This document shows positions 16,695 through 55,389 of a stretch of DNA of 64,000 nt, piece by piece. Numbering within the stretch: position 1 is the first letter of the stretch; the number at the start of each line of letters is the position of its first letter. The translations under genes were made by a program, and so were the position numbers. The notes under the pieces are model-generated. The model saw only the letters and a program-made list of their open reading frames with translations. It was not told the origin of the DNA and searched no databases. The stretch comes from a virus (taxonomy: Duplodnaviria > Heunggongvirae > Uroviricota > Caudoviricetes), in the IMG/VR virus record IMGVR_UViG_2639762987_000002; one strand, written 5' to 3'.

Positions 16695-16713
16695 AAAAAA
16701 CAAAGGAAAGCAC

Positions 16714-18054
16714 ATGACCGAACTTTGCCATACAGGACGCGGGCTGTCCGAAGAGTTTGATGAAGATTTCCAGAACAGACTGACGGCATATTTTTGTCGT
16801 GATCACGAGTTTCTTACTCGTGCGGGAGATCTGGTTGTGCCTAGCCAGTTTGCCAATGCGGCCAATGCCATATTGGTTAATATGGTTTCGGGCTATTACC
16901 GTATGTACAAGAGCGCGCCCTCTTCATCTGCAATTCTGGATATGCTTAAGCGTGCGAAACGCGATAAGACTATCCGTGAGGAACTATTCGCCGATGTTGT
17001 TGCTGCGTTTAAGCGCATTCTTGCAGAAAAATTGTCCGATACCTCGTACATGGTTGACCAGGTATCAACCTTCGCAAAAAGTGTAGCGTTTGATGATGCT
17101 CTGATTAAGGCTGCTGAACTGAAAGAGAAAGGCGACTTTCAGGGGGCGATGGCAATCATGGCCAAGGTTCAGCAGATTGGATCGAACGAAGCGACCGGAA
17201 TCTATGACTACTACACCTCCGCAAGTGAGCGATTGAAAGCGCGTGAATATGAGGCTTCAGAGGAGTATGTACCAAACAGTATTACAACTGGACTCCCTCT
17301 TCTCGATAGGTTGCTGTACCAAAAAGGCTGGGCAAAGCGCGAAATGGTGCTCTTCATGGGGTTCGCTAAATCCGGTAAATCGACCGCAATGGGTGAGTTT
17401 TCCATAAACGCAACGCTTGCTGGCTACAATGTTCTGTATCTCTCGCTGGAGGTTCACACCACCATTTTATCCGACCGTTTTGATGCAAGATTGTCGGAGA
17501 CAGAAATGTCCAAGCTGGTGGAACGGCGCGATGAGGTTCATCGTAAGTTGGCAGAGTTGGGAGCCACGAAGGGGATTGGTAGTTTGTGGGTGGTTGAGCG
17601 TCCGTCAGGAAGTATGTCACCGGCAGATCTGGACCGTATGCTTAACAGCATGAAAGCCAACGGCATGGTACCTGACATGGTTGTTGTCGACTACGCAGAT
17701 TTGATGCGTGCCAGTTATGACCTTCGTGATGATCGCGCCAACATTCGTAGTATCTACACCGATTTACGTGCTCTTTATGACAAGCATAACGTTGCTGGGA
17801 TCACGGCATCGCAGACAAACCGTGAAGGTGGCGCGTCAGAAGTTGCCACAATGATGCACGCTGCCGACAACATCGAAAAAGTACGTATTGCTGACCTGGT
17901 AATAACGATCAACAAAACCGAAGAAGAAGAAGCGAAAGGAGAGGCTCGTCTCTACTTTGCCGGTTCACGTAACCAGCAGGGAGGGATCAGCATTCGCGTT
18001 AAACAAAACCTCGAACAAATGCGCTTCATTGAGCGAATCTTAGACGTTACCTAA
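16714..18054 (+). CDS. Replicative DNA helicase (DnaB-like, RecA-fold)
   Basis: 446 aa; Walker A GFAKSGKST, Walker B-like VVVDYADLM; adjacent to primase. Confidence 0.6.
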   Translation: MTELCHTGRGLSEEFDEDFQNRLTAYFCRDHEFLTRAGDLVVPSQFANAANAILVNMVSGYYRMYKSAPSSSAILDMLKRAKRDKTIREELFADVVAAFKRILAEKLSDTSYMVDQVSTFAKSVAFDDALIKAAELKEKGDFQGAMAIMAKVQQIGSNEATGIYDYYTSASERLKAREYEASEEYVPNSITTGLPLLDRLLYQKGWAKREMVLFMGFAKSGKSTAMGEFSINATLAGYNVLYLSLEVHTTILSDRFDARLSETEMSKLVERRDEVHRKLAELGATKGIGSLWVVERPSGSMSPADLDRMLNSMKANGMVPDMVVVDYADLMRASYDLRDDRANIRSIYTDLRALYDKHNVAGITASQTNREGGASEVATMMHAADNIEKVRIADLVITINKTEEEEAKGEARLYFAGSRNQQGGISIRVKQNLEQMRFIERILDVT

Positions 18055-18135
18055 AAAATAAGCGTGGAGAACACCTCCACGCTTGATTCATTGGTGAAAC
18101 AACTTTTCTTTTGCCAAACCACAAAAGAAAAACAC

Positions 18136-19317
18136 ATGAGCCTTTATGTTATATCAACATTTAGGTTGGTCACAATATTGCCTGTTAAAAGTGGAATTAT
18201 CGTGAGCGAGCTGAAAGAGCTAATTACCGAATTAGATTTTGAACAATGGTTGGATACTGAAGGTATCGTTTATCGACGTGGAGGCGTGAGTACTCGCGGT
18301 CGTGAAGTGAATATCAAGGAGTGTCCGGTATGCGGCAGCTCCAACTGGAAGGTATATTTCAATCTGACCAGTGGCGTCGGTAAATGCTTCGCTGGTGATC
18401 ATCCCGAAGAGATTCAGTTCAATAAGCTGGTCTTCCTCAAGCACTACAGCGGCAAATCACGACGACAGTTCGAGGAATATGTGCAGAACGCCCTTCTTTC
18501 CCAGGGGTGGGCACCAAAGAAAGAAGAGCTAGTGCTTGCAAGCACAGTCGAGTTAGAGGAGCCAGTTGCACTCCCTCGTCATTACGAGCTTCCTATAGAT
18601 GGCCGTCTTCCAGACTATCTGGTTGAACGAAACATATCGCCTGAAATGGCAAAGTATTTTGACCTACGATACTGCGTCGAAGGCAAGCACGCCTATGTAG
18701 ATCCGTATACAGATCAGGTTAAAGGACAGATATTCGATATGCGAATACTGATACCGGTTTACGATCTGGATGGGGTAATGAAGACATTTCAGGGACGAGA
18801 CATTACCGGTACAGCAGAACGCCGCTACCTCTTTCCTATGCAACTTCCAGCTTCAGGTAAGTTTCTCTACAACGGCCATAATGCAGTCGGCAAACAGACT
18901 GTAGTTGTCTGTGAGGGGGCGTTCGATGTTATGGGGGTTAAACGAGCTATTTTTGACGAAGAAACATTACGTGATTACGTGGAACCAATAGGAACGTTCG
19001 GGATGCATCTATCTGGTAACACCACTCAGGATGCAGAAGATCAGTTAGGCGCGTTCCTGACGCTCAAGGCGCGTGGATTACGTAATGTGATCATGATGTG
19101 GGATAGTGAAAAGCAAGCTATACGCAACACGATGGCCGCAGCCAGGCGACTGACCAGTATCGGTCTTAATGTCAAAGTTGCGTGTTTGGGTGAGGAAGGA
19201 CTCGACCCGGGCGGTGCAACGCCAGAACAAATTATCAAAGCCTATTATCGGGCAAAACCGTATACCAAACAGTTGGAGTTGCAAAGCAAGGTTTTGGGCA
19301 TTAAGGCTCTATCATAA
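18136..19317 (+). CDS. DNA primase (DnaG-like zinc finger + TOPRIM)
   Basis: ATG 18136 preceded by AAAAGAAAAACACATG; CPVCGSS...GKCFAGDH zinc motif; VVVCEGAFDVMG and MMWDSEKQ TOPRIM-like motifs. Confidence 0.7.
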   Translation: MSLYVISTFRLVTILPVKSGIIVSELKELITELDFEQWLDTEGIVYRRGGVSTRGREVNIKECPVCGSSNWKVYFNLTSGVGKCFAGDHPEEIQFNKLVFLKHYSGKSRRQFEEYVQNALLSQGWAPKKEELVLASTVELEEPVALPRHYELPIDGRLPDYLVERNISPEMAKYFDLRYCVEGKHAYVDPYTDQVKGQIFDMRILIPVYDLDGVMKTFQGRDITGTAERRYLFPMQLPASGKFLYNGHNAVGKQTVVVCEGAFDVMGVKRAIFDEETLRDYVEPIGTFGMHLSGNTTQDAEDQLGAFLTLKARGLRNVIMMWDSEKQAIRNTMAAARRLTSIGLNVKVACLGEEGLDPGGATPEQIIKAYYRAKPYTKQLELQSKVLGIKALS

Positions 19318-19392
19318 CAATCACCTTTAAAATAAGTAGATGATTACTTATCTTTCTGTGAGAATACTTTCATCTGTTAGCTAGGAGTTGGT

Positions 19393-20224: not shown

Positions 20225-20707
20225 ATGGCGGTAGTTGTGAAAGCTGACTTGTCAAAAATCCCCTCTATTTCAGGAAATAATGGTTATTCACTTCGTTGTG
20301 AGGAAGTAAAGATAAACGGTGAGTCGGCATATTGCAGCTACTCCGTTTGCCAGCACACCATTCTTGCCTTCAAAGAAAACCGTCTTCCTCGAACTTCATT
20401 CCAGTCGTGCGCAACCGCTATCAAAGCAGGCAAATGCAAGGCGTTAAAAATGATGGTTGAAGAGATTCGTAAAGGAGAATCTCTGTATTTCGAAGATATG
20501 ACCGTGCTCATTAAGGAGGTTGAAGAACGGAATAAACAAGCCAGAACTTTAAAACGAAAACGTGACAGTGTAACGATTAATGGCATGGTTAAGAAGAGCA
20601 CCACATCACAAACAGCGATCACTGACGTGTATGCGGCGTTGCTTGAAGAAACAACAAAAGAAACACATGAGCAAATCGATCAACATATGGAGGTAAAACA
20701 ACAATGA
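20225..20707 (+). CDS. Hypothetical protein
   Basis: 160 aa; several Cys; overlaps ligase start. Confidence 0.45.
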   Translation: MAVVVKADLSKIPSISGNNGYSLRCEEVKINGESAYCSYSVCQHTILAFKENRLPRTSFQSCATAIKAGKCKALKMMVEEIRKGESLYFEDMTVLIKEVEERNKQARTLKRKRDSVTINGMVKKSTTSQTAITDVYAALLEETTKETHEQIDQHMEVKQQ

Positions 20708-23615: not shown

Positions 23616-23690
23616 GATGGTGTAGCTCAGCGGTAGAGCAGTTGGCTGTTAACCAACTGGTCGGTGGTTCGAATCCACCCACCATCGCCA
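23616..23690 (+). tRNA. tRNA-Asn (anticodon GTT)
   Basis: Manual fold: acceptor GATGGTG/CACCATC, anticodon loop CTGTTAA, T-loop TTCGAAT, 3' CCA. Confidence 0.75.
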
Positions 23691-23695
23691 ATTTA

Positions 23696-23782
23696 GGGGA
23701 GTTAGTCCGTAGAGGTAGCGGTGTAGACTGTAAATCTACTGTCATGGCGACTCGGGTGGTTCGACTCCATCACTCCCCACCA
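23696..23782 (+). tRNA. tRNA-Tyr (anticodon GTA), long variable arm
   Basis: 87 nt; acceptor GGGGAGT/ACTCCCC, anticodon loop CTGTAAA, T-loop TTCGACT, 3' CCA. Confidence 0.65.
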
Positions 23783-23786
23783 AATT

Positions 23787-23862
23787 GCCGGTTTAGCTCA
23801 GTTGGTAGAGCGCCTGCCTTGTAAGCAGGATGTCAGCGGTTCGAGTCCGTTAACCGGCACCA
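23787..23862 (+). tRNA. tRNA-Thr (anticodon TGT)
   Basis: 76 nt; acceptor GCCGGTT/AACCGGC, D-loop AGTTGGTAGA, anticodon loop CTTGTAA, T-loop TTCGAGT, 3' CCA. Confidence 0.8.
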
Positions 23863-24079
23863 ACACAACAGGAAAGAGCATTGAAAACCGCCGAGACTGC
23901 CCTGTTTTAAGCGTAAGTCCGTGCAAACGTCATACAGTGCTCTTTTCGTTGTGGTTGATGCGCAGACTGATGCGCGGAAAGAAATGCCCCAGCGACACAC
24001 GAGGCGAGTTCACACACTGCAATGCAGTCAGTAGCCGGGGTCGCTAAGCCGGAGATCAGTACCGGTAACCACAACAATT

Positions 24080-24166
24080 GGAGAGTAGGGAGCATGGTGC
24101 TCAAGCGGTCTTGAAAACCGTCCCATTGTGCAAACGATGATGGTTCGATTCCATTACTCTCCGCCA
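24080..24166 (+). tRNA. tRNA-Ser (anticodon TGA), long variable arm
   Basis: 87 nt; acceptor GGAGAGT/ACTCTCC, anticodon loop CTTGAAA, T-loop TTCGATT, 3' CCA. Confidence 0.65.
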
Positions 24167-24320
24167 GACACAGCGTTGAGCGGTTTGGCCTTTTAATCAA
24201 CTCGATTAAGACTCCGCTAACATAAACCAGACCGCTCAACGCTGTGATAGATAATTACGGCAGACGTTCTTAACCATAGCTTGCTAACATCCTAGCAACA
24301 CTTTTTTCAGCGCAAAATTC

Positions 24321-24343
24321 AAAGGGGCTTCGGCCCCTTTTTT
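24321..24343. terminator. Bidirectional rho-independent terminator
   Basis: AAAGGGGC-TTCG-GCCCCTTT with A-run before and T-run after; sits between tRNA cluster and the end of a minus-strand gene. Confidence 0.8.
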
Positions 24344-24358
24344 GTTGAACAGTGCAAT

Positions 24359-25621
24359 TTACTTTGCATAGTCGCCCAATTTTAATATTTCGCGCTTATA
24401 TTCATTAACCATGCTACTGGATTCAGTATAAATTCGATTTAAAAGATTATCGTTATCTTTATTTTCATTTATCTTAATTAGTGCTAATTTATATTCATAG
24501 TCATCAAATGCCACAATTAAATGGTGGCCTGGGATTATATCTTCGTCACTCTTAAAGTATATATCTTCAAGTATGTAATCTAGTTGATTAGATTTTCTTT
24601 TCTCGATGTAATCTTCAGCCATAGCTATTACATCATTCCTGTCATTTAACCTGTTTTTTTCGGAAGGCACATCTTCGTAATGTTGCACGATTGAACAACC
24701 AATAAGGCGTGGGATGTAAACGTCAAAATGAGTAACTCTATCATTCGCGGTTTTAAGTAGTTCCTCAAAGTAGTTTCTTACATGTAAAGGCAACTTCTCA
24801 AAGTAATCATTAATTATAGGAGAACAAGGAGTTTTATAATTCATAAGAACCGACGGTACGAGCTTTGGGTGTCGAAACATCCAGTCCCTTTTAACGTCCG
24901 ATGGAACATAATAACTTTTAATGATATTATCAAAATAATTTATCATTCGAGATTTGAATATTTTGTTGAATCTAAGGTTTATGAATGTATCCAGATAAGG
25001 CATATTTGAATAAGCATCATCAAAAAATATTTCTTCATTGAAGAAATCATATTTATTTAATAAATAAAACAGTTTTTCCGAATTAATATGTTCACAATAA
25101 TCGATTTTTAATCCAAAGATAGCAATGATCAACTTCATCTGAGGTGGGATTTTAAAAATTAATTGTGACACATACGCTCTTTTTTCCTTGAGACATTCCC
25201 CATCAATATAAAATGAACCATCCACATACTCAAATATATTAATAATATGCTTCACATACTGTATTACCTCATGCTGTCTTACCAATGGATAATATAGTCT
25301 ATGTAACTCATCGCTGTTTAAATTAATTTTGTGTTTATCGATAATTTGTTTTGCAAGAAGACATAACTCATCATGTTGATTTAATAAGGAATCAAACCAT
25401 TGTTTAAATGCACTCTTTCGCATTTCGAACAATGATTCAGTTGTTAATTGAAGGGCTGAAAAAGCCGCTTTTGCACTTTTTCTCGCTTCGTAGGCATTCC
25501 ATGCTGTTGCTATAAAAGCAAATGCTGTAGCCAATGTTCCAACAGTTTGACCATTTAAAACAACCCAATCCCAAAAAATGACGGTGAGCAGTAGTATAAT
25601 AATGAAAATTAAAAAAGGCAT
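24359..25621 (-). CDS. AT-rich membrane-anchored protein of unknown function (candidate exclusion/defence gene)
   Basis: 420 aa on minus strand; two N-terminal TM helices; strongly AT-rich by eye relative to flanks; own terminator. Confidence 0.6.
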   Translation of the reverse strand: MPFLIFIIILLLTVIFWDWVVLNGQTVGTLATAFAFIATAWNAYEARKSAKAAFSALQLTTESLFEMRKSAFKQWFDSLLNQHDELCLLAKQIIDKHKINLNSDELHRLYYPLVRQHEVIQYVKHIINIFEYVDGSFYIDGECLKEKRAYVSQLIFKIPPQMKLIIAIFGLKIDYCEHINSEKLFYLLNKYDFFNEEIFFDDAYSNMPYLDTFINLRFNKIFKSRMINYFDNIIKSYYVPSDVKRDWMFRHPKLVPSVLMNYKTPCSPIINDYFEKLPLHVRNYFEELLKTANDRVTHFDVYIPRLIGCSIVQHYEDVPSEKNRLNDRNDVIAMAEDYIEKRKSNQLDYILEDIYFKSDEDIIPGHHLIVAFDDYEYKLALIKINENKDNDNLLNRIYTESSSMVNEYKREILKLGDYAK

Positions 25622-25713
25622 GTATGTATTTCACTCTACTAACTATAAAATATTAGGCTAATGTTAACCAAACAATGCCTTAATTAATAGATTGATCGAG
25701 GCTTTAATAGCTT

Positions 25714-25753
25714 TATAATGCAGACCGCAAAGATAGGTATGCACATACCTATC
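25714..25753 (+). promoter_or_regulatory. Promoter with TATAAT -10 followed by perfect palindrome GATAGGTATG-ca-CATACCTATC
   Basis: TATAAT at 25714-25719; palindrome 25732-25753 belongs to the dispersed GATA(A/G)GTA...TAC(C/T)TATC family. Confidence 0.5.
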
Positions 25754-25795
25754 TTCTTTGTAAGTAAAGTTACATATCAATTCTACGAGGTCACA

Positions 25796-26041
25796 ATGAC
25801 GATCACTATCTACGGACGAGATAACTGCTCATACTGCAAACGTGCGGTCGAGCTGGCGAAGCAACTAAAGGGACATGGCTACGGTGATTATGAGTACATC
25901 GACATCACCACTGCCGGTATCGACAAGGAAAAACTAAGTGAAATTGTTGGTAAACCGGTAGAGACTATCCCCCAAGTGCTGATCGATGGCCAACCGATTG
26001 GCGGATACACAGAACTGGCTGCATACGTCAGCACCCTCTGA
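25796..26041 (+). CDS. Glutaredoxin/NrdC-like thiol-disulfide protein
   Basis: 81 aa from ATG 25796 with RBS GAGGT (ORF track begins 25718); active-site CSYC; C-terminal GG motif. Confidence 0.65.
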   Translation: MTITIYGRDNCSYCKRAVELAKQLKGHGYGDYEYIDITTAGIDKEKLSEIVGKPVETIPQVLIDGQPIGGYTELAAYVSTL

Positions 26042-30407: not shown

Positions 30408-30502
30408 ACAAAACAGCCTTAACGATAAGTAACCACTTACGATAGATAATGATATATTTATATAAGAAGTTGAACGCTCATTAGAAAACAAAGGAAAAAC
30501 GC

Positions 30503-31738
30503 ATGACTACTACTGCACTGCAAAATGAAAAAAATCCTTCTGATTACCTTGTTTGCAAGTGGTGCGGAAAATCATTTCACTATTTTAAGTCCCATGTAGC
30601 CAATGGTAATTGCGAGGGCATTCCTGAGTCAGTAAAAGATGCCGATCCTGACACCGTACTGAAAATGTACACAACACAGTTTCCAGATGAGCCAACGCTA
30701 TCGAAAAAGGCACTTGATGCAATTCAAGCTAAACGTGCCGAGCAAAAAAGCGAAATGGCCAAATCATCTGGCGTGACCAGTAGCCCAGGCTACACAGGCA
30801 CAGTTGAGTACAAGACAGATCTGGTCGCAGCTCACGAACTGCTAAATGTAACGGTGAAAGAACTCGGAACAAAACGTGGGACGCCGCTCATGGTTAGCGT
30901 CAACGTCAATACGCCGTTTCCAGAGTTCGTTCCAGAAGTGAAGAAGGGATACGTATATGGCGACTTCGAACTGATCAAAGACATTTTCATGATGCTTGAA
31001 CTTGGCATACCTGGCTATTTGTGGGGTCATGCAGGAACAGGCAAATCTTCATTGCCTACACAACTATGTGCTTTGCTCAATCGTCCGTTAATCCGTGCCC
31101 AACATACAGCATCAATGGAAGAGGCTCATGTTACGGGACAAATTCTGGCGCGTGATGGCTCTACGTATTTCGAGCCTGGCTTGCTTGCGCTCGCAATGAA
31201 GCATGGCTGGGTTTACCTCGCGGATGAATACGACTTTGCGTTTCCACAGATTCTTGGCGTGTATCAGCCAGTGCTGGAAGGTGAAGCGTTGGTCATCAAA
31301 GAGGCGACTCCAGAATGGCGTCGCATTACTCCGCATGAACGGTTTGCTTTCATTGGCACTGGCAACACGAACGGATCTGGTGATGAAACCGGCTTGTACC
31401 AGGGTACAAACATCCAGAACGCCGCGAACTTTTCGCGTTTTGGCATCGTTTCGAATGTGAAATACATGAGCAAAGAGGCAGAGATCAACATGTTGATAAA
31501 TGCCGGTATCGTGGATGAATACGCAGAAAAGATGGTTAAGTTTGCCGGTATCGTTCGCGATGGATACGAAGAACACCTTATCAGTCAGCCAATTGGCCCT
31601 CGTGAACTTTTGTTGTCGGCCAAGATTGGAATGATGCGAGGCGACTTTGTGACAGGTATTGAGCGTTCTTTCATTAACAAACTCCCTTCAGCTTCTGCAC
31701 AAGCGGCTCGTGAAGTTGTTCAAAAAATATTTGGTTAA
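30503..31738 (+). CDS. AAA+ ATPase (MoxR/CobS-like)
   Basis: 411 aa; Walker A GHAGTGKSS, Walker B VYLADEYD; N-terminal Cys cluster CKWCG...NGNCEG. Confidence 0.65.
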   Translation: MTTTALQNEKNPSDYLVCKWCGKSFHYFKSHVANGNCEGIPESVKDADPDTVLKMYTTQFPDEPTLSKKALDAIQAKRAEQKSEMAKSSGVTSSPGYTGTVEYKTDLVAAHELLNVTVKELGTKRGTPLMVSVNVNTPFPEFVPEVKKGYVYGDFELIKDIFMMLELGIPGYLWGHAGTGKSSLPTQLCALLNRPLIRAQHTASMEEAHVTGQILARDGSTYFEPGLLALAMKHGWVYLADEYDFAFPQILGVYQPVLEGEALVIKEATPEWRRITPHERFAFIGTGNTNGSGDETGLYQGTNIQNAANFSRFGIVSNVKYMSKEAEINMLINAGIVDEYAEKMVKFAGIVRDGYEEHLISQPIGPRELLLSAKIGMMRGDFVTGIERSFINKLPSASAQAAREVVQKIFG

Positions 31739-31740: not shown

Positions 31741-31944
31741 GTGCGTAAAGGATGTTTCGGCTCTCTTATCGCTGCTTCTGAAACTGGTAAGGCTTGTCTG
31801 GTGTGTCCAGACAAGCCCGATTGTCACCAATCAGCAAAAGAAGTTGCGATTTCGATGCATGGGAAGTTCGTAGGCTTCCCCAATGACAAAATCAAAAAAA
31901 CCAGAAAGGTAAAAACACATGAAGGCACTGATGGTTCGAACTGA
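31741..31944 (+). CDS. Hypothetical small Cys-containing protein
   Basis: 67 aa from GTG; overlaps dnaE start; weak. Confidence 0.25.
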   Translation: MRKGCFGSLIAASETGKACLVCPDKPDCHQSAKEVAISMHGKFVGFPNDKIKKTRKVKTHEGTDGSN

Positions 31945-35437: not shown

Positions 35438-35444
35438 TCCCATA

Positions 35445-35469
35445 AACATGGCCTCTATGGCCATGTTTT
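35445..35469 (+). terminator. Rho-independent terminator
   Basis: AACATGGCC-tctat-GGCCATGTT hairpin followed by T-run. Confidence 0.7.
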
Positions 35470-35562
35470 CCCTTATCCCCTCATATCCCCTATCCTCGAA
35501 CTCCTTGCCTTATCATCACAATGATATAATCAATATAAAATGATAAGTAAAAAGGAAAGCAC

Positions 35563-35994
35563 ATGATCACCGATATTTACGAGAAAATAATGTCTGATCT
35601 CGAGTTTGACCGAGACAATCTGGAGGAAGTCTGGCGTAGACAACCCCGCCTTTTAATGGAGTATGGCTCAAAACTCGCTCATGCAGAAAGAAGTGTCGCA
35701 GAGGCAAAACTTAACCTTGAAGCTGTTGAAGCAAAGCTATACGACACAGAGCGTAAGAACTTGAGTATGAACGGCATTAAGTTCAACGAGTCTGTACTGG
35801 ACGCTAAGGTTAAAACAAACCCACAGTATCTGTCTAAACGGCAGAAGTTGGATGAAGCACGGCACATCGCAGACATATACAAACATGCTGTCGCCGCCTT
35901 TTCGCATCGCCGAGACATGATCGTTCAGGCGTCAAAGATGGCCATCGTTGAATTAGAGCGATTAGGCTCTGAACGCTTTATTACTCCCCGTTGA
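35563..35994 (+). CDS. Hypothetical protein (coiled-coil)
   Basis: 143 aa; start context AAAAGGAAAGCACATG. Confidence 0.5.
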   Translation: MITDIYEKIMSDLEFDRDNLEEVWRRQPRLLMEYGSKLAHAERSVAEAKLNLEAVEAKLYDTERKNLSMNGIKFNESVLDAKVKTNPQYLSKRQKLDEARHIADIYKHAVAAFSHRRDMIVQASKMAIVELERLGSERFITPR

Positions 35995-37185: not shown

Positions 37186-37200
37186 GGAAGGAATGTACCG

Positions 37201-39487: not shown

Positions 39488-39493
39488 ACACAA

Positions 39494-39516
39494 GGCGTCC
39501 ACAGGACGCCTTTTTT
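39494..39516 (+). terminator. Rho-independent terminator
   Basis: GGCGTCC-ACA-GGACGCC followed by TTTTTT. Confidence 0.8.
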
Positions 39517-39521: not shown

Positions 39522-39550
39522 TTGAAAATATATAAGTACTTACTTATTAT
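39522..39550 (+). promoter_or_regulatory. Sigma70-like promoter with palindrome ATAAGTACTTACTTAT in the spacer
   Basis: TTGAAA (39522-39527), 17-nt spacer, TATTAT (39545-39550); spacer carries the dispersed palindrome family. Confidence 0.5.
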
Positions 39551-39579
39551 TTTCGCATAACAACCACATAGGAAAACAC

Positions 39580-39780
39580 ATGATCAAAATCTATCTATTG
39601 GCAGTAGCCACAGGCCTTTCAGTGGCTCTCATCTACGGTTTACTGGTTCCGTCGCTGATTTCTACCAAGAGTGATTTAGCCGTCATGTTTGGAGTTATCG
39701 TTGGTTTTGGTGCTCCTGTAATCGGTCTTATTGCTGGTCGTAAGTTTATCAACTCATTAATCAAAGCAAAGGGGAAATAA
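39580..39780 (+). CDS. Small membrane protein
   Basis: 66 aa; two hydrophobic helices; immediately upstream of SPFH lipoprotein gene. Confidence 0.5.
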   Translation: MIKIYLLAVATGLSVALIYGLLVPSLISTKSDLAVMFGVIVGFGAPVIGLIAGRKFINSLIKAKGK

Positions 39781-43219: not shown

Positions 43220-43274
43220 TCGCCTATTCATAACTAACAAAATAAGTAAACACTAACCACAAAAGGAAAAACAC

Positions 43275-43550
43275 ATGAGAGTTTTAGTTCGAATCGTTAC
43301 CAGCACTGTCTATGACGTGTTTCCGCTTTTTATGGTCAAAGCCGATGGCCTTAACGACGAAGAAACTGACGCACTGATCCAGCGTATTCTCGTTGAATAT
43401 ACAGGTCATGACGCTGATTCAGTGATGGTTGATGATGATGGTGTTTGTTGGCATAACGGCAACTGTTGGTACGTAGAAGAGACTCAACAAATCAGTGATG
43501 AAGATGCCGCACATCTTGAGCGTATTTTAAGCATCAGCACTTTTGAGTGA
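43275..43550 (+). CDS. Hypothetical acidic small protein
   Basis: 91 aa; start context AAAAGGAAAAACACATG. Confidence 0.5.
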   Translation: MRVLVRIVTSTVYDVFPLFMVKADGLNDEETDALIQRILVEYTGHDADSVMVDDDGVCWHNGNCWYVEETQQISDEDAAHLERILSISTFE

Positions 43551-46953: not shown

Positions 46954-47207
46954 CCCTCCAGATCGTATATTGGCGTAGATAGAATCTACGCCTCCTCAAA
47001 ATAGCTCTCATAGCGTTCTACAGTGATTCTGTCTTATTTTTAGTCATATAGACAAGCAAACTTGCGCCACAATAAATAGGTATATACTTACTTATAAATT
47101 TTGTATATTAAGGCGCTCGTTTCATTCCTAACATACCGTTATGCATAGTTGTTTACCTCATCATTGCTCTTAGAATTTGTATCAAAATAACCACAAAGGA
47201 AAAATAC

Positions 47208-48293
47208 ATGACTTTGCCATACGGCGTCATTTCTGACTGCCACTACCACAAATGGGATGCGTTCTCCACGACGAACGCTGAGGGGCTTAACTCCAGACTT
47301 GAAATACAGTTGGAAGCAACGAAAGAAGCAGCCATCGCCATGAAGAAGGCCGGTTGTAAGTACATGTTGGTTGCCGGTGATACATTTCACGTCCGAGGAA
47401 CTGTGTCCCCTTCTGTTTTGCATTACGTAACTGAAACGTACAAGTGGATTATCAACGAGCTTGATCTGATAGTAGTAATGCTGGCCGGTAATCACGATCT
47501 TGAAACCAACGATTCAGTATATAGCGCCAACGCAGCAGCATCGCTGAGTTCTATCGGCGTGGTAATCGTATGTGGCAAGCGCCCACACTCAATAAAAATT
47601 GGTGATGTGACTGTCCACCTGATTAGCTGGCGTAACAATCATGCGGAGCTTATCAGCGATCTGAAAGCATTACGTAAGAGCGTAGAAGGTGATAATCATG
47701 ACGTTGTTATCCATACATCCATTAACAAAGCCATTCCAACAATGCCTGACGTCGGTATCGATGCGCAGGAGTTAAAGGATATCGGCTTTCGTCTCGTGCT
47801 TAGTGGGCATTACCACAACCACAAAGAGGTCATTCCTGGAGTTATCAGTGTCGGTGCGCTGACCCATCAAAATTGGGGAGATGTTGGATCTCTGGCTGGT
47901 TACATGATCGTAAACCCGGACGGCAGTTTCAGTCACTACGAAACCAGTGCGCCTAAATTCATTAACCTGGAAGATTATGTTGCCGATGACCAAATTCGCG
48001 GCAACTACGTGCGTTTCCGCGCCGTAATCGAGAACGATGAAGAAGGCATTAAGTACCAGAACATCCTTAAAACAATGGGTGCAAAAGGTGTTGTGTGCAA
48101 CTTCATCCGTAAGTCATCAATGATGGAAGGGACTGCAAGCACAACGGAAACCAGCAAAATCGATAGCCTGGGAGAGTCGGTATCTGCTTATTGCAAGATT
48201 GTCCACGATACTGACGGCGGATTTGATCTGAGCAAGTTGGATATTTTGTGTCAGGAAATCCTCACCGAAGCGGAGAGTTCGGAGGCTGTGTGA
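47208..48293 (+). CDS. sbcD: SbcD/Mre11-family nuclease
   Basis: 361 aa; phosphoesterase motifs LVAGDTFH, LAGNHD, SGHYHNH; start context AAAGGAAAAATACATG. Confidence 0.75.
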   Translation: MTLPYGVISDCHYHKWDAFSTTNAEGLNSRLEIQLEATKEAAIAMKKAGCKYMLVAGDTFHVRGTVSPSVLHYVTETYKWIINELDLIVVMLAGNHDLETNDSVYSANAAASLSSIGVVIVCGKRPHSIKIGDVTVHLISWRNNHAELISDLKALRKSVEGDNHDVVIHTSINKAIPTMPDVGIDAQELKDIGFRLVLSGHYHNHKEVIPGVISVGALTHQNWGDVGSLAGYMIVNPDGSFSHYETSAPKFINLEDYVADDQIRGNYVRFRAVIENDEEGIKYQNILKTMGAKGVVCNFIRKSSMMEGTASTTETSKIDSLGESVSAYCKIVHDTDGGFDLSKLDILCQEILTEAESSEAV

Positions 48294-48526: not shown

Positions 48527-50439
48527 AGTTTTTAAAGCTCCAGGTTGAGAATTTTATGGCTATCGCCAGCGCGGAGGTCGAGTTAGATCAGCGTGGTTTA
48601 GTGCTCATTCAGGGTGTTAATAGTGATGATAGTTCCGCATCAAGTAATGGCTCTGGAAAGTCAACGCTAATGAATAGCCTGATGTGGTGTCTTTATGGCG
48701 AAACAGCTCATGGTGTGAAGGGTGACGATGTGTTGTCTACCGACCATGAAAAGAACTGTCGTGTTGCAGTAACCATCGAGGATGAAGGCAAGAGATATGC
48801 GATCATTCGTCACCGTAAACACAAAGAGTTCAAAAATCGTCTTATCGTTCGTGGTGAAGATGGCGATATGACGAAAGGCAAAGATGCGCTGACGCAAGAG
48901 TTCGTCGAGCGTCTGATCGGTGCATCTAAAGAGGTTTTCATGGCTTCCATCTATGCGAGCCAAGAAGCTATGCCAGATTTACCTGGAATGTCCGACAAAA
49001 ACCTCAAAACCATCGTAGAAGAAGCCGCTGGCGTTGACAGACTGACACGCGCCTACGCTATTGCTCGTGAGCGAGCTAATGCAGCTGCCGCACGTATGGA
49101 TGTGGTTAAAACCAAATTGGAGTCGACAATCTCGACCATTGAGGCAACACAGTCAGAAATTGAGTCAGCGAAAGCCTCCTCTGAATCATGGGAGCAAGAG
49201 CGTTCTAAACGTTATGACGATGCCCTGGCTGGGCTGGCCAGTGCCGAAGTTGAGTTAACGGAAGTTGAACTTGAGATCCGCACTCTTCCCGAACAGATCC
49301 GTGATACCGAGAAGGCAATCGAAAGTGAGCGCAAAAAGTTAGCCTCAAAAGAAGAACATGACGCCAAGTTGCTCAAAGTTCGTGGTGCGATAACTGATAT
49401 TCGGGCAAGCATCAAAGCTACAGAAAATAGTCAGGCTGATGCAATGAGCCGCGCGCGTAATTTTAAGACCAAAGCAGAAGAGGTTGGTACTAAAGTGGGA
49501 TCACCATGTCCTACTTGTGGCAAAGCCTACTGCGAAGAAGATCTATCAACGGTGAAGGAGAATTTCATTGAACAAGCACGTCAGGAAATTGGTCAGGCGA
49601 AGACACTTGCAGAGGCAATGGCTAAACACAAAACGAATCTTGAGAAAGCGTTAAGCATTGAGTCTGCCCTTGTTAAAACGACACCTGATGTAACGGCTAT
49701 CATTGCCCGGATTGAAGAGCTTACGAAACAACTCTCATCTTTGCGTCATCGTGAGAAGGAGGTTGTTGCTATTGAGTCTCTTGTGACTCGTGCTCGTACT
49801 GAGGTCGATCGTATATCAAAAGAGATTAATCCGTTTATTGCTCTTATCGCCAGACACGAAGATAACTTGGTATCCAGTAAGTCTACCTTCAAGTCCTTAA
49901 AAGATGAGTTGAAGGCTATTCAGGAACAAACGTTGCTATTGGAAAAAGCTCGTCAGGTCTACTCTCCTGCCGGGGTGCGTTCTCATATTTTGACGTCTGT
50001 TACGCCTTTCCTGAATACACGCACTGCCGAGTATCTCAATACGTTGTCTGACGGGAATATTACTGCTGAGTGGTCGACGATGGATGTCACTAAAAAAGGT
50101 GAGTATCGCGACAAATTCAACATTAGTGTGCAGAAGAAAGGTTCAAGTAAGTCGTTCCAGACCCTCTCTGGTGGTGAGAAGCGGAAGGTTCGCATTGCGT
50201 GTTCTTTGGCATTGCAGGATCTGGTTAGTAACCGGGCGAGTAAAAACATCGATTTGTTTATCGGCGACGAAATTGACGATGCACTCGATACAGCCGGTCT
50301 TGAACGCCTCATGGGTATTCTGGAGTCCAAAGCTCGCGAGCGAGGTACTGTGCTGATTATCTCCCATAAAGAGATGAAGTCATGGTTCCGGGAAACTATT
50401 ACGCTGGAAGTTAAAGAGGGGCGCAGCTATGTCGTTTAA
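48523..50439 (+). CDS. sbcC: SbcC/Rad50-family ATPase
   Basis: 638 aa; Walker A NGSGKST, coiled coil with zinc-hook CPTCG, signature LSGGEKRK, Walker B DEIDDALD. Confidence 0.75.
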   Translation: MKFLKLQVENFMAIASAEVELDQRGLVLIQGVNSDDSSASSNGSGKSTLMNSLMWCLYGETAHGVKGDDVLSTDHEKNCRVAVTIEDEGKRYAIIRHRKHKEFKNRLIVRGEDGDMTKGKDALTQEFVERLIGASKEVFMASIYASQEAMPDLPGMSDKNLKTIVEEAAGVDRLTRAYAIARERANAAAARMDVVKTKLESTISTIEATQSEIESAKASSESWEQERSKRYDDALAGLASAEVELTEVELEIRTLPEQIRDTEKAIESERKKLASKEEHDAKLLKVRGAITDIRASIKATENSQADAMSRARNFKTKAEEVGTKVGSPCPTCGKAYCEEDLSTVKENFIEQARQEIGQAKTLAEAMAKHKTNLEKALSIESALVKTTPDVTAIIARIEELTKQLSSLRHREKEVVAIESLVTRARTEVDRISKEINPFIALIARHEDNLVSSKSTFKSLKDELKAIQEQTLLLEKARQVYSPAGVRSHILTSVTPFLNTRTAEYLNTLSDGNITAEWSTMDVTKKGEYRDKFNISVQKKGSSKSFQTLSGGEKRKVRIACSLALQDLVSNRASKNIDLFIGDEIDDALDTAGLERLMGILESKARERGTVLIISHKEMKSWFRETITLEVKEGRSYVV

Positions 50440-51172
50440 ATTAAGCCGCTCGCAGTTTTTGCAGGTATTTGCAGTGATGCAGTCGATAAAACTGATCAAT
50501 GGGCATACTTCCAATGGTGCGGCTCCACGTATTCTGTGGGGCAGCAACAATATTGACGGAGTACAATTTGCCGCGTTGCTTGGTCTAATATCCGAGACGC
50601 CATTGATGCAAAGTTTGAAATCACTACCACCTGGATGTATTGCGCCGATCCTGATTAATCCTTTTGTTGAGGGGGGATATCTTCCCAACGTCGGGCCTGG
50701 GTTTATTGCATCCCATGAAACTGAAGATCTTAACATTAATAGCGAAGGGTTCTTTGGGGGAATGGGTGCGCATCACTGTATGGCTTTCACGAACCTTATT
50801 CGACTTGCCAATAAGCGGGTGGATAGTTTGGCATCGCCAGGTGATGCTTTTACTGGTTTCCTTATCCAAAGGAGGGATAAAAAGTACAGTGCGGACAAAC
50901 TACAGTTTGTTGGTAAGTATGGAGAAATGGTAGAAATCGAACTTCAGCTCCCTCATGTTTTAGCAAACGATAGTGCAGACAGTCGGAGGCTGTTGGGCAT
51001 CATGCGTCATTTCATAGCAAGTGGTGTTAAACATACCGCAGATAAACGTGTCACGCAGGAAAATGAGTATTCAGACTTTGCAAACTATCCCCAACCAACG
51101 TTGCAAACGGCAATAGTAGCCAATTCGTTGGAGGCGAGATTATTGGAAAACCCTATATGGGGAACATGGTAA
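50429..51172 (+). CDS. Hypothetical protein
   Basis: 247 aa; overlaps sbcC stop by 11 nt. Confidence 0.5.
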   Translation: MSFKLSRSQFLQVFAVMQSIKLINGHTSNGAAPRILWGSNNIDGVQFAALLGLISETPLMQSLKSLPPGCIAPILINPFVEGGYLPNVGPGFIASHETEDLNINSEGFFGGMGAHHCMAFTNLIRLANKRVDSLASPGDAFTGFLIQRRDKKYSADKLQFVGKYGEMVEIELQLPHVLANDSADSRRLLGIMRHFIASGVKHTADKRVTQENEYSDFANYPQPTLQTAIVANSLEARLLENPIWGTW

Positions 51173-51181
51173 GGAGACTAT

Positions 51182-51751
51182 ATGAGTAAAAAAATCAGCG
51201 TAGTTGGTGTTGATCCCTCAATGAGCAACTTTGGGCTTGCTGTGGGCACTTTAGACCTTGAGACGGACGAACTTGAGATTCACGGCCTTACTCTTATTGA
51301 GACTAAAGCGGGGAGTAACAAAAAGACCGTTCGTGTGAACAGTGACGATCTGCGCCGAGCCAGTGAAATATGGCGTGTTGCGAAGCCAATCATTGATAAG
51401 GCAAATATGGTTTTTTGTGAGCTACCGGTTGGGAGCCAAAACTCTCGTTCGCAGACGTCTTACGGTATTTGTATCGGTGTACTTGCGTGTGTGGATAAGC
51501 CATTGATCCAGGTTACTCCAAACGAAATCAAGCATTTTGTCGGCAATAAACTTACTACATCGAAAGAAGAGATTATCCAGTGGGCTACGAAAAAACACCC
51601 TAAAGCACCGTGGCTGCGTCGTAAGCAATCTGGACAGGATGTTCTCGTGAACAAAAACGAACATTTGGCTGATGCGGTGGCTGCCATCCATACCGGTATG
51701 CAAACAGATCAGTTCCGCCAGGTGCGCGATGTTCTTAAGTCTCTCATTTGA
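51182..51751 (+). CDS. RuvC-like Holliday junction resolvase
   Basis: 189 aa; N-terminal VVGVDPSMSNFGLAVG, internal FCELPVG, C-terminal DAVAAIHTG resembling RuvC catalytic segments. Confidence 0.6.
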   Translation: MSKKISVVGVDPSMSNFGLAVGTLDLETDELEIHGLTLIETKAGSNKKTVRVNSDDLRRASEIWRVAKPIIDKANMVFCELPVGSQNSRSQTSYGICIGVLACVDKPLIQVTPNEIKHFVGNKLTTSKEEIIQWATKKHPKAPWLRRKQSGQDVLVNKNEHLADAVAAIHTGMQTDQFRQVRDVLKSLI

Positions 51752-51785
51752 TTTCATTGATAGGTAAGTGCTTATCTATTAACAT

Positions 51786-51815
51786 GGGCCACTATATTTA
51801 GTGGCCCTCTTTATT
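51786..51815 (+). terminator. Hairpin terminator
   Basis: GGGCCACT-atattt-AGTGGCCC followed by TCTTTATTT. Confidence 0.6.
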
Positions 51816-51824
51816 TGGTGATAC

Positions 51825-54140
51825 ATGATAAGCATCGTAAAACGTAACGGCCAAACAGAGCCGTTATCCGAAGAAAAATACAACCGCGTCGTAATGTATG
51901 GCGTAGAAGGCATTCGTGGTGTAAGCGCATCCGCTGTAGCAATGGGAGCTGCGGCCAGCATTTTTGATGGGATGACCACCAGCCAGTTGCATGAGGCTTT
52001 GGTTAAATCTGCCGCTGATTTGATCTCACCAGAAGCACCAAATTACTCACAGGTGGCTGCCCGCCTGAACATTTTTAAAATCCGCAAAGATGCCTTCGGT
52101 CGTTACGACTATCCGAACTTCTACCAACACATTGTCAAGAACGTTAACAAGGGCGTTTATGACAAGGATTTGCTGACACATTATTCGTTTGAAGAGATCG
52201 AAGAACTCGGCAATTACATTAAGCCGAAACGTGACGATCTTTTTGGCTATGCAGCTACGGTGCAGTTGCAAAGCAAATACCTCGTTCAAAACCGTGTTAC
52301 TGGTGAGATTCATGAGGGGCCGCAACATATCTATATGCTGGTAGGCATGTGTCTGTTCCAGAATTGGGAAGACGACTGCGCTGGCAAAACACGTATGGAG
52401 ATGGTCAAAGGTTTCTATGACGTTACAAGTACGTTCAAACTGTCTCTGCCCACACCTATCATGGCCGGCGTCCGTACTCCAACCCGTCAGTTCTCCAGTT
52501 GTGTGCTGATTGAGTCTGGCGATAGTCTGAAAGGGATTAGTGCAGCTTCAGCCGCAATTATCGACTACGTTTCACGTCGTGCTGGAATTGGTATTGGTAT
52601 TGGCCGTATCCGTGCGCTGGGCAGCGAGATCCGCAATGGTGAAGCCACCCATACCGGAGTTATTCCATTCCTGAAGCATTTCCAGACGGCTGTTAAATCT
52701 TGTTCGCAAGGTGGTGTTCGTGGTGGCGCAGCAACAGCGTTTTACCCGATCTGGCATCTTGAAGTTGAAAGTCTGCTGGTGGTGAAAAATAACCGTGGTA
52801 TTGATGAAAACCGCGTTCGCCATCTTGATTACGGCGTCATGAGTAACCGTCTAATGTACCGTCGACTCGTCAGAAGCGAGAACATCACTCTGTTCAGCCC
52901 GCATGATGTGCCTGATATGTACGAAGCCTTCTTCACAGACCAGGAGCTGTTTGAAAAGCTGTACCATAAATACGAAGCCGATGATTCAATTCGCAAGAAG
53001 TCAGTACCTGCCATTGAGCTGTTCTCATCTCTGATGCAGGAACGAGCGTCCACGGGCCGAATTTATATTGCGAACGTCGATCATATTAATGAGCATGGCG
53101 CTTTCATTCCTGCTCTTGCACCTGTCCGCCAGTCAAACCTGTGTATGGAGATCACCCTACCCACCCGTCCACTGGCATTTACCGACGACCCGAACGGTGA
53201 GATCGCGCTATGCACTTTATCCGCTTTTAACCTCGGAGCCATCCGTTCACTGGAGTCTCTTAAAGAGGTGGCGTTCTATGCCGTTGCTGCACTGGATTCG
53301 TTACTGGATTATCAAGACTATCCGATGGAGGCAGCCGAAGTGCCTGCCAAAGCTCGTCGTAGCTTGGGAATTGGTGTAACCAACTTTGCTTATTACCTGG
53401 CAAAGAATGGCGTTCGTTATTCTGATACCGCTGGCAATAAACTGGTGCATGAAACGTTCGAAGCTATCCAGTATTACCTTCTTGATGCCAGCTGCCGACT
53501 TGCTGAAGCAAAAGGTGAGTGTGACTGGTTTGAGCAGACCAAATACGCAATTGGTCAGTTGCCGATCGACCATTACCGTTCTTCATTAGACGAAAGTGGC
53601 GAAACCAACTTTGAGTTAAAGATGCCGTGGGAAGAACTGCGTGAACGTATTGCAAAATACGGCCTTCGCAACTCCACACTGACGGCACAAATGCCATGCG
53701 AGACTTCCAGCCAGATCACTAATTCCACCAACGGCATCGAACCGCCTCGTGGCCCGGTGTCGGTGAAATCTTCTAAGGACGGCATCGTTAAGATGGTCGT
53801 GCCTGAGTTTGAAAAACTGAAGGAACAGTATGAATACCTGTGGGATATGCCGGACAACCGCGGCTATCTGACAAAGGTGGCGATCATCCAGAAGTTCTTT
53901 GACCAGGCTATTTCAGCCAATACCAACTATGACCCTTCTCGCTTTGAAGGCGATAAAGTCCCAATGATGACGCTACTGTCAGATTTGCTTCTCGCCTACA
54001 AGATGGGAGTTAAAACGCTTTACTACCACAACACCAGAGATGGTGCAGGAAAGCGTGATGACGACGAACCGCAGAATCCACTGGCGCAAGCTGTAGCCGT
54101 CGAGCCAGAAGATGAGTGCGACGGAGCCTGCAAAATCTGA
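51825..54140 (+). CDS. nrdA: Ribonucleotide reductase class Ia large subunit
   Basis: 771 aa; N-terminal ATP-cone-like VKRNGQTEPL; active-site SNLCMEITLPT and PCETSSQI. Confidence 0.9.
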   Translation: MISIVKRNGQTEPLSEEKYNRVVMYGVEGIRGVSASAVAMGAAASIFDGMTTSQLHEALVKSAADLISPEAPNYSQVAARLNIFKIRKDAFGRYDYPNFYQHIVKNVNKGVYDKDLLTHYSFEEIEELGNYIKPKRDDLFGYAATVQLQSKYLVQNRVTGEIHEGPQHIYMLVGMCLFQNWEDDCAGKTRMEMVKGFYDVTSTFKLSLPTPIMAGVRTPTRQFSSCVLIESGDSLKGISAASAAIIDYVSRRAGIGIGIGRIRALGSEIRNGEATHTGVIPFLKHFQTAVKSCSQGGVRGGAATAFYPIWHLEVESLLVVKNNRGIDENRVRHLDYGVMSNRLMYRRLVRSENITLFSPHDVPDMYEAFFTDQELFEKLYHKYEADDSIRKKSVPAIELFSSLMQERASTGRIYIANVDHINEHGAFIPALAPVRQSNLCMEITLPTRPLAFTDDPNGEIALCTLSAFNLGAIRSLESLKEVAFYAVAALDSLLDYQDYPMEAAEVPAKARRSLGIGVTNFAYYLAKNGVRYSDTAGNKLVHETFEAIQYYLLDASCRLAEAKGECDWFEQTKYAIGQLPIDHYRSSLDESGETNFELKMPWEELRERIAKYGLRNSTLTAQMPCETSSQITNSTNGIEPPRGPVSVKSSKDGIVKMVVPEFEKLKEQYEYLWDMPDNRGYLTKVAIIQKFFDQAISANTNYDPSRFEGDKVPMMTLLSDLLLAYKMGVKTLYYHNTRDGAGKRDDDEPQNPLAQAVAVEPEDECDGACKI

Positions 54141-54202
54141 CATATGGTGGGGGATATCCCCACCTTCTCTTTGATTTGTAAGCCTTGTTTAAACACATAA
54201 GA

Positions 54203-54215
54203 TAACAACTTGTTT
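54203..54215. promoter_or_regulatory. Palindrome tAACAAcTTGTTT upstream of nrdB
   Basis: Member of the AAACAA-N-TTGTTT family. Confidence 0.4.
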
Positions 54216-54246
54216 AAACGCACCAAAAAAGAAAAAGGAAAAACAC

Positions 54247-55389
54247 ATGTCATATTCAACGTTCCGTTTGGGTGCTAATGATGCAACCAAAGAGCCTATG
54301 TTCCTCGGACAATCTGTCAACGTGGCACGTTACGATCAGCAAAAATACCGTGATTTTGAAAAGTTGATTGAACGTCAATTGTCTTTCTTCTGGCGGCCGG
54401 AAGAAGTTGATATTTCGAGCGATCGTATCGACTTCAACACGAAGCTGCGGGACCACGAACGTCACATTTTTCTGAGCAATCTCCGTTATCAAACGTTACT
54501 CGATTCAGTTCAGGGACGTAGTCCAAATGCAACGCTGCTGCCGCTTATCTCTATTCCTGAACTGGAAACGTGGGTTGAAACGTGGTCTTTCTCTGAGACT
54601 ATCCATAGCCGCAGCTACACCCACATTATTCGTGGCATGGTGGACGATCCGAGCATTGTTTTTGACGGTATTGTTACGGATGAAGAAATCATCAACCGAG
54701 CGATCAGTATCTCTGCTGAATATGACAGGCTTTATGGGATGACCTGCGAGCGCCAGTCGTTAGGTGAGAAGGAATTTGAGCGTCTGTACGTAAATGAATA
54801 TGGCTGGGAGCCATACCCTTTGCATCGTCAGCTTTTCCGCACGTTGGTGTCCATTAATGCTCTTGAGGCGATCCGTTTCTACGTAAGTTTTGCATGTACG
54901 TTTGCCTTTGGTGAACGGAAGTTGCTTGAGGGTAACACCAAAATTATGCGCTTTATTGCCCGTGATGAAGCTCTGCATTGCGAAGGAACTGAACGCATGA
55001 TCCGCTTCATGCGTACCGGTCGCGAAGGTTTATTGTGGAAAGAGATTGCTGCTGATGAAGAAAACGTCATTTACGACACCATGAAATCAGTCGCCGAACA
55101 AGAAATGAACTGGGCAGACTATCTCTTCAAAGACGGTTCGATGATTGGTTTAAACGCGGATATTCTCAAAACCTATGTAAAATACCGCACCAATCTGGCT
55201 ATGAATCGTCTTGGCCTGAAGTCTTTATTTCCAGAAGTTACCACTGATCCGCTGGTCTGGATGAACAAGTGGTTGTTAACCGACACACTGCAAATTGCAC
55301 CACAAGAGGCAGAGCAAAGCACATATCTGGTAGGTCAGATCGATTCTACCGTGGATAAGGCTTCTCTAAGCCAGTTTGCAGACCTGTAA
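54247..55389 (+). CDS. nrdB: Ribonucleotide reductase class Ia small subunit
   Basis: 380 aa; di-iron/tyrosyl-radical protein features; directly downstream of nrdA; start context AAAAAGGAAAAACACATG. Confidence 0.9.

Follow-up and report, generated by a model that had tools for sequence, protein, structure and literature searches.

The 64,000-nucleotide stretch of DNA analysed here (IMG/VR record IMGVR_UViG_2639762987_000002, hereafter the window) is a 64-kb part of an SSU5-type phage-plasmid of Escherichia coli. It shares 98% identity with Escherichia phage PhiR41_1, its closest relative, 96% with phage Cyrano (pLF82), and 79% with Salmonella phage SSU5. Almost all of the genes are carried on the + strand, in the order tail, lysis, partition, DNA replication and recombination, nucleotide metabolism, and an RNase H gene. 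Ten genes of the window start behind a common leader of about 20 bases, with the consensus (A)ACCACA–AAGGA–A-run–(A/G)(C/T)AC–ATG and with ACAC standing directly before the ATG. This leader motif is the subject of the present study. It is a real signal for the translation of one class of genes, conserved and selected across the phage-plasmid family, and it is possibly also the docking site of a family-specific RNA-binding repressor.

The leader motif and its genes

The ten sites, given here as leader plus ATG, all lie on the + strand, and an intergenic gap of 43–254 nt precedes every motif gene of the window. In some of these gaps a terminator is followed by a promoter-like site. The site of the DnaB-like helicase (16692–16716) reads tttaaaaaacaaaggaaagcacATG; the Cyrano (32112) and SSU5 (34417) annotations place the start here too, and CAC is present in 26/26 ortholog haplotypes. 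The site that opens a short leader open reading frame (ORF) before the primase (18114–18138) reads ccaaaccacaaaagaaaaacacATG and has no GG core, with AAAGAAAA in the place of the Shine-Dalgarno (SD) sequence; CAC was found in 13/13 haplotypes. The AAA_5 ATPase gene (30481–30505; "cobalamin synthetase" in Cyrano) has the variant ACGC, and its SSU5 and Klebsiella orthologs have AAAACAC. The SD of the gene for DNA polymerase III alpha (31897–31921) is the variant AAGGT, and CAC is kept in all six haplotypes (6/6). The leader of the UvsY-like gene (35541–35565) has an extended -10 sequence, TGATATAAT, 32 nt before the ATG at 35563. It is followed by the leader of the gp32-like single-stranded DNA-binding protein (SSB; 36090–36114), aaatcacaacaaggagaaacacATG, whose orthologs have ACAC or ATAC. 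The bases at -4 to -1 of the gene for a 66-aa membrane protein (39558–39582) are invariant in 23 haplotypes, with a nucleotide diversity of 0.35 upstream; its predicted RNA start lies about 22 nt upstream. The remaining sites belong to a 91-aa hypothetical protein (43253–43277), an SbcD-like nuclease (47186–47210; variant ATAC, with ortholog spacers AAAA, AAAATA and AAAAGA, and CAC always abutting the ATG), and the beta subunit of ribonucleotide reductase, NrdB (54225–54249).

Nine of these starts had been listed in a first-pass annotation as sharing a nearly identical context. An ATG was confirmed at each of the nine, with the described context upstream. The tenth, at 36112 (the SSB gene), had been overlooked. 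A degenerate 15-mer had exact matches at two sites (0.01 expected) and, with up to two mismatches, at six sites, all on the + strand (1.12 expected; six were reached in 0/100 shuffles). The remaining three of the nine differ from the 15-mer by a 1-nt change in spacer length or one substitution. The likeness reaches further 5′ than first reported: AACCACA precedes the SD at four sites, and ATCACAA or AACCAGA at two more. With a position weight matrix spanning -24 to +3, the ten sites scored 25–33 bits (18–30 bits when each was left out in turn), and the best non-motif scores were 12.0 among 1,313 + strand ATGs and 12.4 on the - strand. CAC at -3 to -1 precedes 10 of 55 provisional gene starts vs. 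1.45% of all + strand ATGs (binomial P = 6e-9). Eight of the ten motif starts agree with the Cyrano annotation, those of primase and uvsY being different, and in SSU5 eight of the orthologs begin with a motif ATG.

The first-pass annotation had claimed that the conservation exceeds what an SD requires and had named a logo with nothing but a generic SD as the contrary outcome. An SD core (AAGGA, AGGAG or AAGGT) is indeed present at -12 to -8 in nine of the ten sites, the exception being 18136, and the motif sites are SD-led initiation regions in the ordinary sense, with a purine-rich core near a real ORF start. Within the motif class, however, the spacer from -7 to -1 carries about as much information as the ATG itself, so that length and low structure are not all that lies between SD and start. 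When all annotated genes of Cyrano or SSU5 are taken together, only about 0.05 bit per position is left in the spacer. The high information within the class and the flat logo over all genes show that the motif is the property of a discrete sub-class, about 10–20% of genes, and not of ribosome-binding sites (RBSs) in general.

The primase site deserves separate description. Its ATG at 18136 opens a 22-codon ORF (18136–18201) that continues in frame into GTG 18202, which is the annotated start of primase in relatives. In SSU5 and one relative (L207) the leader ORF ends at a TGA overlapping the primase ATG, and in two others (L243 and L244) it stops after six codons. Differences between the window and SSU5 fall on the three codon positions in the ratio 6, 6, 7. 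Because there is no third-position bias, and because of the stop after six codons in two relatives, the peptide is not conserved. The ATG at 18136 is therefore probably not the primase start proper; a conserved start with an unconserved peptide, in fused, overlapping and shortened forms, suggests translational coupling to primase. A weak copy of the motif, aaacaacaaaagaaacacATG (20645–20669, + strand; 12–14 bits), lies within the 3′ end of ORF 20225–20707 just 5′ of the ligase start, and it is doubtful as a real start in the window. At its counterpart in SSU5 the upstream gene ends on the ATG (ATGA), and a mini-ORF of 12 codons reaches up to the start of ligase.

Distribution and selection across the family

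Four relatives were scanned whole. Cyrano has 14 motif sites, SSU5 has 15, Klebsiella phage vB_KpnS_p4727 has 12, and the Klebsiella plasmid pC714_2 has 22, all of them on the coding strand, before the orthologous genes and before further non-structural genes. The motif was never found in the structural modules of the family genomes scanned. In the five family genomes it is confined to non-structural genes (replication, recombination, nucleotide metabolism) that follow intergenic gaps, which bears out the earlier suggestion of a class of genes. In pC714_2, whose SSB is only 42% identical, CAC stands at -3 to -1 of 21 of the 105 annotated starts (P = 4e-16). Controls gave two matches in 50 kb of phage P1 and one in 50 kb of E. 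coli, and CAC preceded none of 65 E. coli gene starts, those of ribosomal-protein operons included; the motif as a general feature of coliphages or of the host is ruled out by these controls. An IMG/VR scan for exact motifs with AAAGGAAAAACACATGA returned, among the matches listed, SSU5-like contigs mixed with single scattered ones. In published transcriptomes of the LF82 lysogen, UvsY and SSB stand at about 9–11 normalised units vs. about 96 for the putative repressor (PMC9928086).

Orthologous leaders were taken from 240 IMG/VR loci. Nucleotide diversity at -4 to -1 was 0.00–0.26 in the seven motif genes. Of eight non-motif genes from these loci, seven had 0.30–0.67, and stom had 0.00 because upstream coding sequence overlaps its leader. 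Diversity at third codon positions was 0.09–0.51 for comparison. The bases at -4 to -1 are under purifying selection in motif genes only, and the motif is conserved across Escherichia, Salmonella and Klebsiella lineages. Before nrdB, AAACAC-ATG is kept across at least six unrelated upstream haplotypes with three SD flavours (AAGGA, AGGG, GAGGG); before sbcD, spacer length and sequence vary and CAC stays beside the ATG. The window allele of uvsY has the motif, and most family alleles have a different N-terminus and a non-motif leader. Comparison of these alleles shows that gain or loss of the motif at uvsY accompanies allele replacement. The recA gene has the motif in pC714_2 and not in the window. 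Gain and loss at individual genes, together with the pattern of selection, are not what a frozen ancestral cassette would predict. With spacer and upstream ACCACA conserved, selection at -4 to -1 restricted to motif genes, and the motif missing from host genes, the claim that the context goes beyond an SD holds.

Proposed ribosome loading and candidate readers of the motif

The first-pass annotation went on to propose a shared translational operator or an RNA-processing signal. The parts of that proposal concerning a gene class and more than an SD stand; an operator or processing signal does not follow; the composition of the motif is largely explained by known cis-acting translation enhancers. 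The reading we favour, and to which we give an even chance, is that the motif is an unstructured ribosome-loading module acting at the RNA level, built of SD, oligo-A and ACA enhancer triplets and placed in the short leaders of lytic early genes. It rests on the accessible leaders, the oligo-A spacer and the enrichment in ACA. From -20 to -1 the motif leaders are 82% A+C and 4% U, with G confined to the SD. The energy needed to open -15 to +13 has a median of 3.7 kcal/mol for motif genes vs. 8.5 kcal/mol for other genes (P = 3e-4). ACA triplets number 2.5 per motif leader vs. 0.59 for other window genes and 0.46 for the 65 E. coli genes, and they lie in single-stranded leader near the SD, as is characteristic of ACA enhancers. 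The motif is present on one strand, anchored to the AUG, limited to one gene class, and unusually accessible.

In mechanistic terms, the leaders, predicted to be about 12–30 nt long, combine four features: a C/A-rich, ACA-containing stretch (AACCACA) just 5′ of the SD; a minimal SD core (AAGGA, AGGAG or AGGG) at optimal aligned spacing; an oligo-A spacer; and a second ACA within the ACAC that abuts the AUG. Such a nearly U-free leader with G only in the SD would not fold and would leave an open ribosome-loading site; at the primase, the module would load ribosomes on a short leader ORF coupled to the real start. The SD core of the motif does sit at the optimal aligned spacing. The promoter-like sites suggest that the leaders are short, and the analogy with published data on ACA enhancers and A-rich spacers suggests that the module raises the efficiency of initiation. 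ACA has been defined experimentally as a translation-enhancing module in Salmonella mRNAs, where strict positioning is unnecessary and G substitutions are the most harmful (PMC3879156), and oligo-A spacers gave the highest expression in E. coli spacer libraries (PMC7264876). The motif also persists despite changes in SD flavour, spacer length and upstream sequence.

Several observations weigh against this reading. The ACAC is fixed to the AUG and the spacer takes all of the length variation, so that a position-tolerant enhancer leaves the lock unexplained. The preferred base at -1 is U, not C, and nothing in the motif is as strongly conserved as the C at -3 and -1. Cytidine was unfavourable in the E. 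coli spacer libraries (PMC7264876), so CAC is not the optimum expected for efficiency alone. Highly expressed host genes, including those of ribosomal-protein operons, do not use the motif. Given the rigid lock to the AUG, the unfavourable C and the non-use by the host, a reader that acts in trans has still to be reckoned with, and a loading module may at the same time be bound by a regulator.

The first-pass annotation had advised a search for a small RNA-binding regulator, and this turned up a candidate: a family-wide FljA-like protein encoded outside the window. Among 56 window and Cyrano proteins scanned against Pfam (mostly hypothetical, and not every protein being covered), no match to the RegA family and no known RNA-binding domain was found save in this protein. 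A phage antisense RNA directed at the motif was rejected, as no complement (CATGTGTTTTTCC, up to one mismatch) lies on the transcribed strand of the window or Cyrano, the matches being the sites themselves. The Cyrano protein, CYRAN_114 (173 aa; OV696614.1, 100780–101301, - strand), belongs over its full length to the FljA family PF03614 ("repressor of phase-1 flagellin"; E = 1e-80), with two tandem Sm/Hfq-like domains predicted. The gene is present in Cyrano, in SSU5, and in the 98% relative PhiR41_1 (37195–37710). In the papers searched, no description of the tandem-Sm fold or of the phage-plasmid clade was found.

In the lysogenic state this protein might bind the A-rich, single-stranded, AUG-anchored leaders and occlude the start, a post-transcriptional lock on top of repressor control. 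An element-encoded FljA paralogue would then act on the shared ...AAGGAAAAACAC-AUG leader of 10–22 mRNAs and silence the lytic DNA genes partly at translation. We put this forward tentatively, as a possibility well short of probable. The gene is present in 12/12 SSU5-like phage records, PhiR41_1 included, and outside these the 50,697 phage records gave only two partial matches in short fragment records (36–47% of the query, 35–47% identity). It is also present in 831 plasmids, its counts by genus running alongside those of the SSB backbone (Klebsiella 341/347, Escherichia 229/224, Enterobacter 92/92, Yersinia 62/63 for FljA-like/SSB). As neither Klebsiella nor Y. pestis has flagella, host fliC can hardly be the conserved target. 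The phage-plasmid clade is only about 35–40% identical to canonical FljA, and the copy in pC714_2, which has the most motif sites of the genomes examined, lies in the syntenic position with 36% identity. In the LF82 lysogen the gene is transcribed with a profile parallel to that of the helix-turn-helix repressor, and the motif genes with retrieved values (UvsY, SSB) are silent there. The rigid anchoring to the AUG and the C residues, which are not optimal, are more in keeping with a binding site than with an enhancer, and the FljA family acts post-transcriptionally on fliC mRNA (PMC2652032; bioRxiv 10.1101/2025.10.27.684867). The co-occurrence of gene and motif is, however, phylogenetically non-independent, both being family traits. 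The E. coli fliC leader is presumably a target of canonical FljA, because transfer of a FljA-encoding plasmid turns motile E. coli non-motile (PMC2652032), but it lacks the motif (caauauaggauaacgaaucAUG), and the leader ...caatataggataacgaatcATG has only AGGA and an AAC in common with it. The motif is the same across lineages whose FljA-like proteins share only 36–66% identity; no covariation with protein divergence was seen (66% vs. 36% identity), which neither supports nor excludes the link. The protein might instead have other targets, such as a single mRNA (rep or a lytic regulator) or either of two palindromic motifs in the same intergenic regions. The FljA-like protein is a credible candidate for a reader of the motif.

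Other explanations look elsewhere for the signal. A host regulator of C/A- or A-rich leaders (the GcvB R1 seed, Hfq on ARN repeats, CsrA on ACA..GGA) would tie lytic translation to host physiology, which we consider unlikely. GcvB masks ACA enhancers (PMC3879156), the SSB leader includes CACAACA, and predicted duplexes with the R1 region have a mean of -17.2 for motif leaders vs. -13.0 kcal/mol (P = 8e-4; E. coli control mean -14.1); yet this gap follows from composition, as any C/A-rich sequence pairs with a G/U-rich seed, the energies of motif leaders lie within the host range (minimum -24.2), and the ACA-GGA distance varies between sites, a poor fit to CsrA. (Full-length GcvB gave long meaningless hybrids without discrimination, and the R1 region was used instead.) Just as unlikely is a linker cassette, inherited or copied and of little function of its own, which recombination would have spread from one gene boundary to another, which would also favour the exchange of modules, and which would be kept by mild RBS constraint. 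It would account for variants that are mostly transitions from one consensus (GCAC, ATAC, ACGC) and not A/C swaps, and for a motif that comes and goes as alleles are replaced at uvsY and g59205. In the same genomes, however, the bases at -4 to -1 of non-motif genes are not constrained, the common stretch is only about 20 nt, and the motif is kept at a divergence of 42% SSB identity, where it stands on different genes (recA in pC714_2, not in the window), which argues for repeated gain under selection. A DNA-level signal, namely the start-site or initial-transcribed region of early promoters, some with AACAA-N-TTGTTTAA as -10 or operator 15–35 nt before the ATG, is very unlikely: promoter-like hexamers do place RNA starts 12–30 nt from the ATG, and a near-palindrome, P2, lies directly 5′ of the leaders at 16714 and 54247 and of several pC714_2 and SSU5 sites, but the invariant part is phased to the ATG and not to upstream elements, promoter distances vary, and P2 is missing at several motif sites and present before non-motif genes (28299, 40710). 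Least probable of all is an RNA-processing site, in which host MazF or a plasmid toxin would cut the ACA at -4 to -2 and leave an inactivated or near-leaderless mRNA. ACA stands 1 nt from the AUG at nearly all sites, several toxin-antitoxin systems occur in family members, and MazF cleavage near initiation codons has been noted (PMC3879156); a cut at ACA, however, needs these 3 nt and nothing else of the motif. For MazF, the model of leaderless mRNAs is itself contested. Linker origin, a promoter or initial-transcribed role, and MazF cleavage are each possible readings, weakly supported or else contradicted by the phasing to the AUG and the selection.

Palindromes, neighbouring features, and known systems

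Two palindromic elements share the intergenic regions with the motif. P2, GAAAACAA(T/A)TTGTTTAAA, occurs at 13750, 16680, 28265, 40679 and 54201, with a half-site near 54175, and stands 15–35 nt 5′ of five ATGs (the ParA-like, helicase, CobT-like, 40710 and NrdB genes). It is conserved in SSU5, IMG/VR relatives and pC714_2; it may serve as a promoter element resembling an extended -10, as the operator of a DNA-binding dimer, or as both. The other, a 22-bp palindrome (GATAGGTAAGT-ACTTACCTATC), lies in intergenic gaps just 5′ of + strand genes, early and late, with 25 sites at up to seven mismatches vs. 2.1 in shuffles. Its sites include 5983, 10764, 15897, 19331, 20202, 22847, 25732, 27764, 36007, 39527, 43568, 47075, 51759, 56472, 61311, 62351 and 63524. 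Several overlap the RBS region of genes that have no SD (15921, 20225, 43590, 56481, 61343). The palindrome resembles an operator used across the genome, as the C1 operators are in P1, or else an RNA hairpin. One copy occupies the spacer of a sigma-70-like promoter on the + strand, TTGAAA-17-TATTAT (39522–39550), which follows an intrinsic terminator (39492–39512) and feeds the leader at 39558. Generic sigma-70 and terminator scans gave fewer promoter-like sites than shuffles, and single sites are given as illustration only.

Curated Rfam covariance models, run over the whole window at gathering thresholds, gave three tRNA matches and no other structured RNA family. ARAGORN finds four tRNA genes at 23616–24166 (Asn, Tyr, Thr, Ser); Cyrano has three (Asn, Thr, Ser) and SSU5 one. 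Adjoining the cluster is a low-GC island (24000–26000; 36% vs. about 46%) with a 420-aa ORF on the - strand (24359–25621) that has no Pfam match. At this place Cyrano has a different gene, CYRAN_43, by far its highest-expressed gene in the lysogen, and the island is probably a variable accessory slot for a moron or defence gene. The recA-like gene is 1,074 nt long in the window (38414–39487) vs. 2,340 nt in Cyrano (55065–57404), which suggests an intein or inserted domain in the latter. A hicAB toxin-antitoxin pair stands between the polymerase III alpha and uvsY genes in Cyrano (50263–52241) and is absent from the window (35437–35563). Between the partition genes and the replication module an ORF on the - strand (14880–15647) with a GIY-YIG nuclease domain (LEM-3-like) may encode a homing endonuclease.

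Phage-plasmids of the SSU5 type, which carry resistance genes, occur widely in Escherichia, Klebsiella, Salmonella, Enterobacter and Yersinia; about 800 plasmids of the SSU5 supergroup have been sequenced, among them pHCM2-, pMT1- and Klebsiella-type elements. Nothing on the control of their lytic genes was found in the papers searched. The motif is a simple marker of early genes and true starts in the five genomes examined, and probably also in several hundred related plasmids. As CAC is non-optimal by prediction, it is also a natural test case for the role of the bases just before the AUG in enterobacterial initiation. Motif and FljA-like protein together make a concrete, cheaply testable hypothesis of post-transcriptional lysogeny control. 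If this hypothesis is right, the FljA family would gain its first regulon of several genes, a system in the manner of T4 RegA built on an Sm fold, and lysogeny would be controlled by a further layer after transcription. A motif that proved to be nothing more than a strong RBS would still be of use as a compact part for expression.

Among known systems, T4 RegA is a phage repressor that acts on AUG-overlapping operators of many early, largely DNA-replication mRNAs. The motif likewise is an AUG-proximal sequence shared by several early mRNAs (ten here, 12–22 per relative), on DNA-metabolism genes that include T4-like recombination functions (gp32-like SSB, UvsY) and ribonucleotide reductase. The operators of RegA are, however, A/U-rich and much less uniform than the motif, and the Pfam-scanned proteins gave no RegA-family match. 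To our knowledge, a multi-gene regulon has never been described for the FljA family. In the repression of fliC by FljA in Salmonella phase variation (PF03614; PMC2652032), the family blocks mRNA translation, and a homologue is a core gene of the phage-plasmids; the phage-plasmid clade is kept in non-flagellated hosts, however, and the fliC leader has no motif. Strong RBSs with A-rich spacers, whether engineered or from phages, such as the T7 gene 10 leader, likewise join an optimally spaced SD to unstructured oligo-A (Komarova et al. 2020, PMC7264876), but C is unfavourable in such studies and is what the motif conserves most, at -3 and -1. The ACA enhancers of the GcvB-silenced yifK, dppA and gltI genes (Yang, Figueroa-Bossi & Bossi 2014, PMC3879156) are likewise ACA triplets in single-stranded C/A-rich leaders of Enterobacteriaceae, and G, the most harmful base there, is nearly absent from motif leaders outside the SD. 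The published enhancer lies 5′ of the SD and is position-tolerant, whereas the motif has a second ACA fixed at -4 to -2 with an invariant C, before 10–22 genes of one element.

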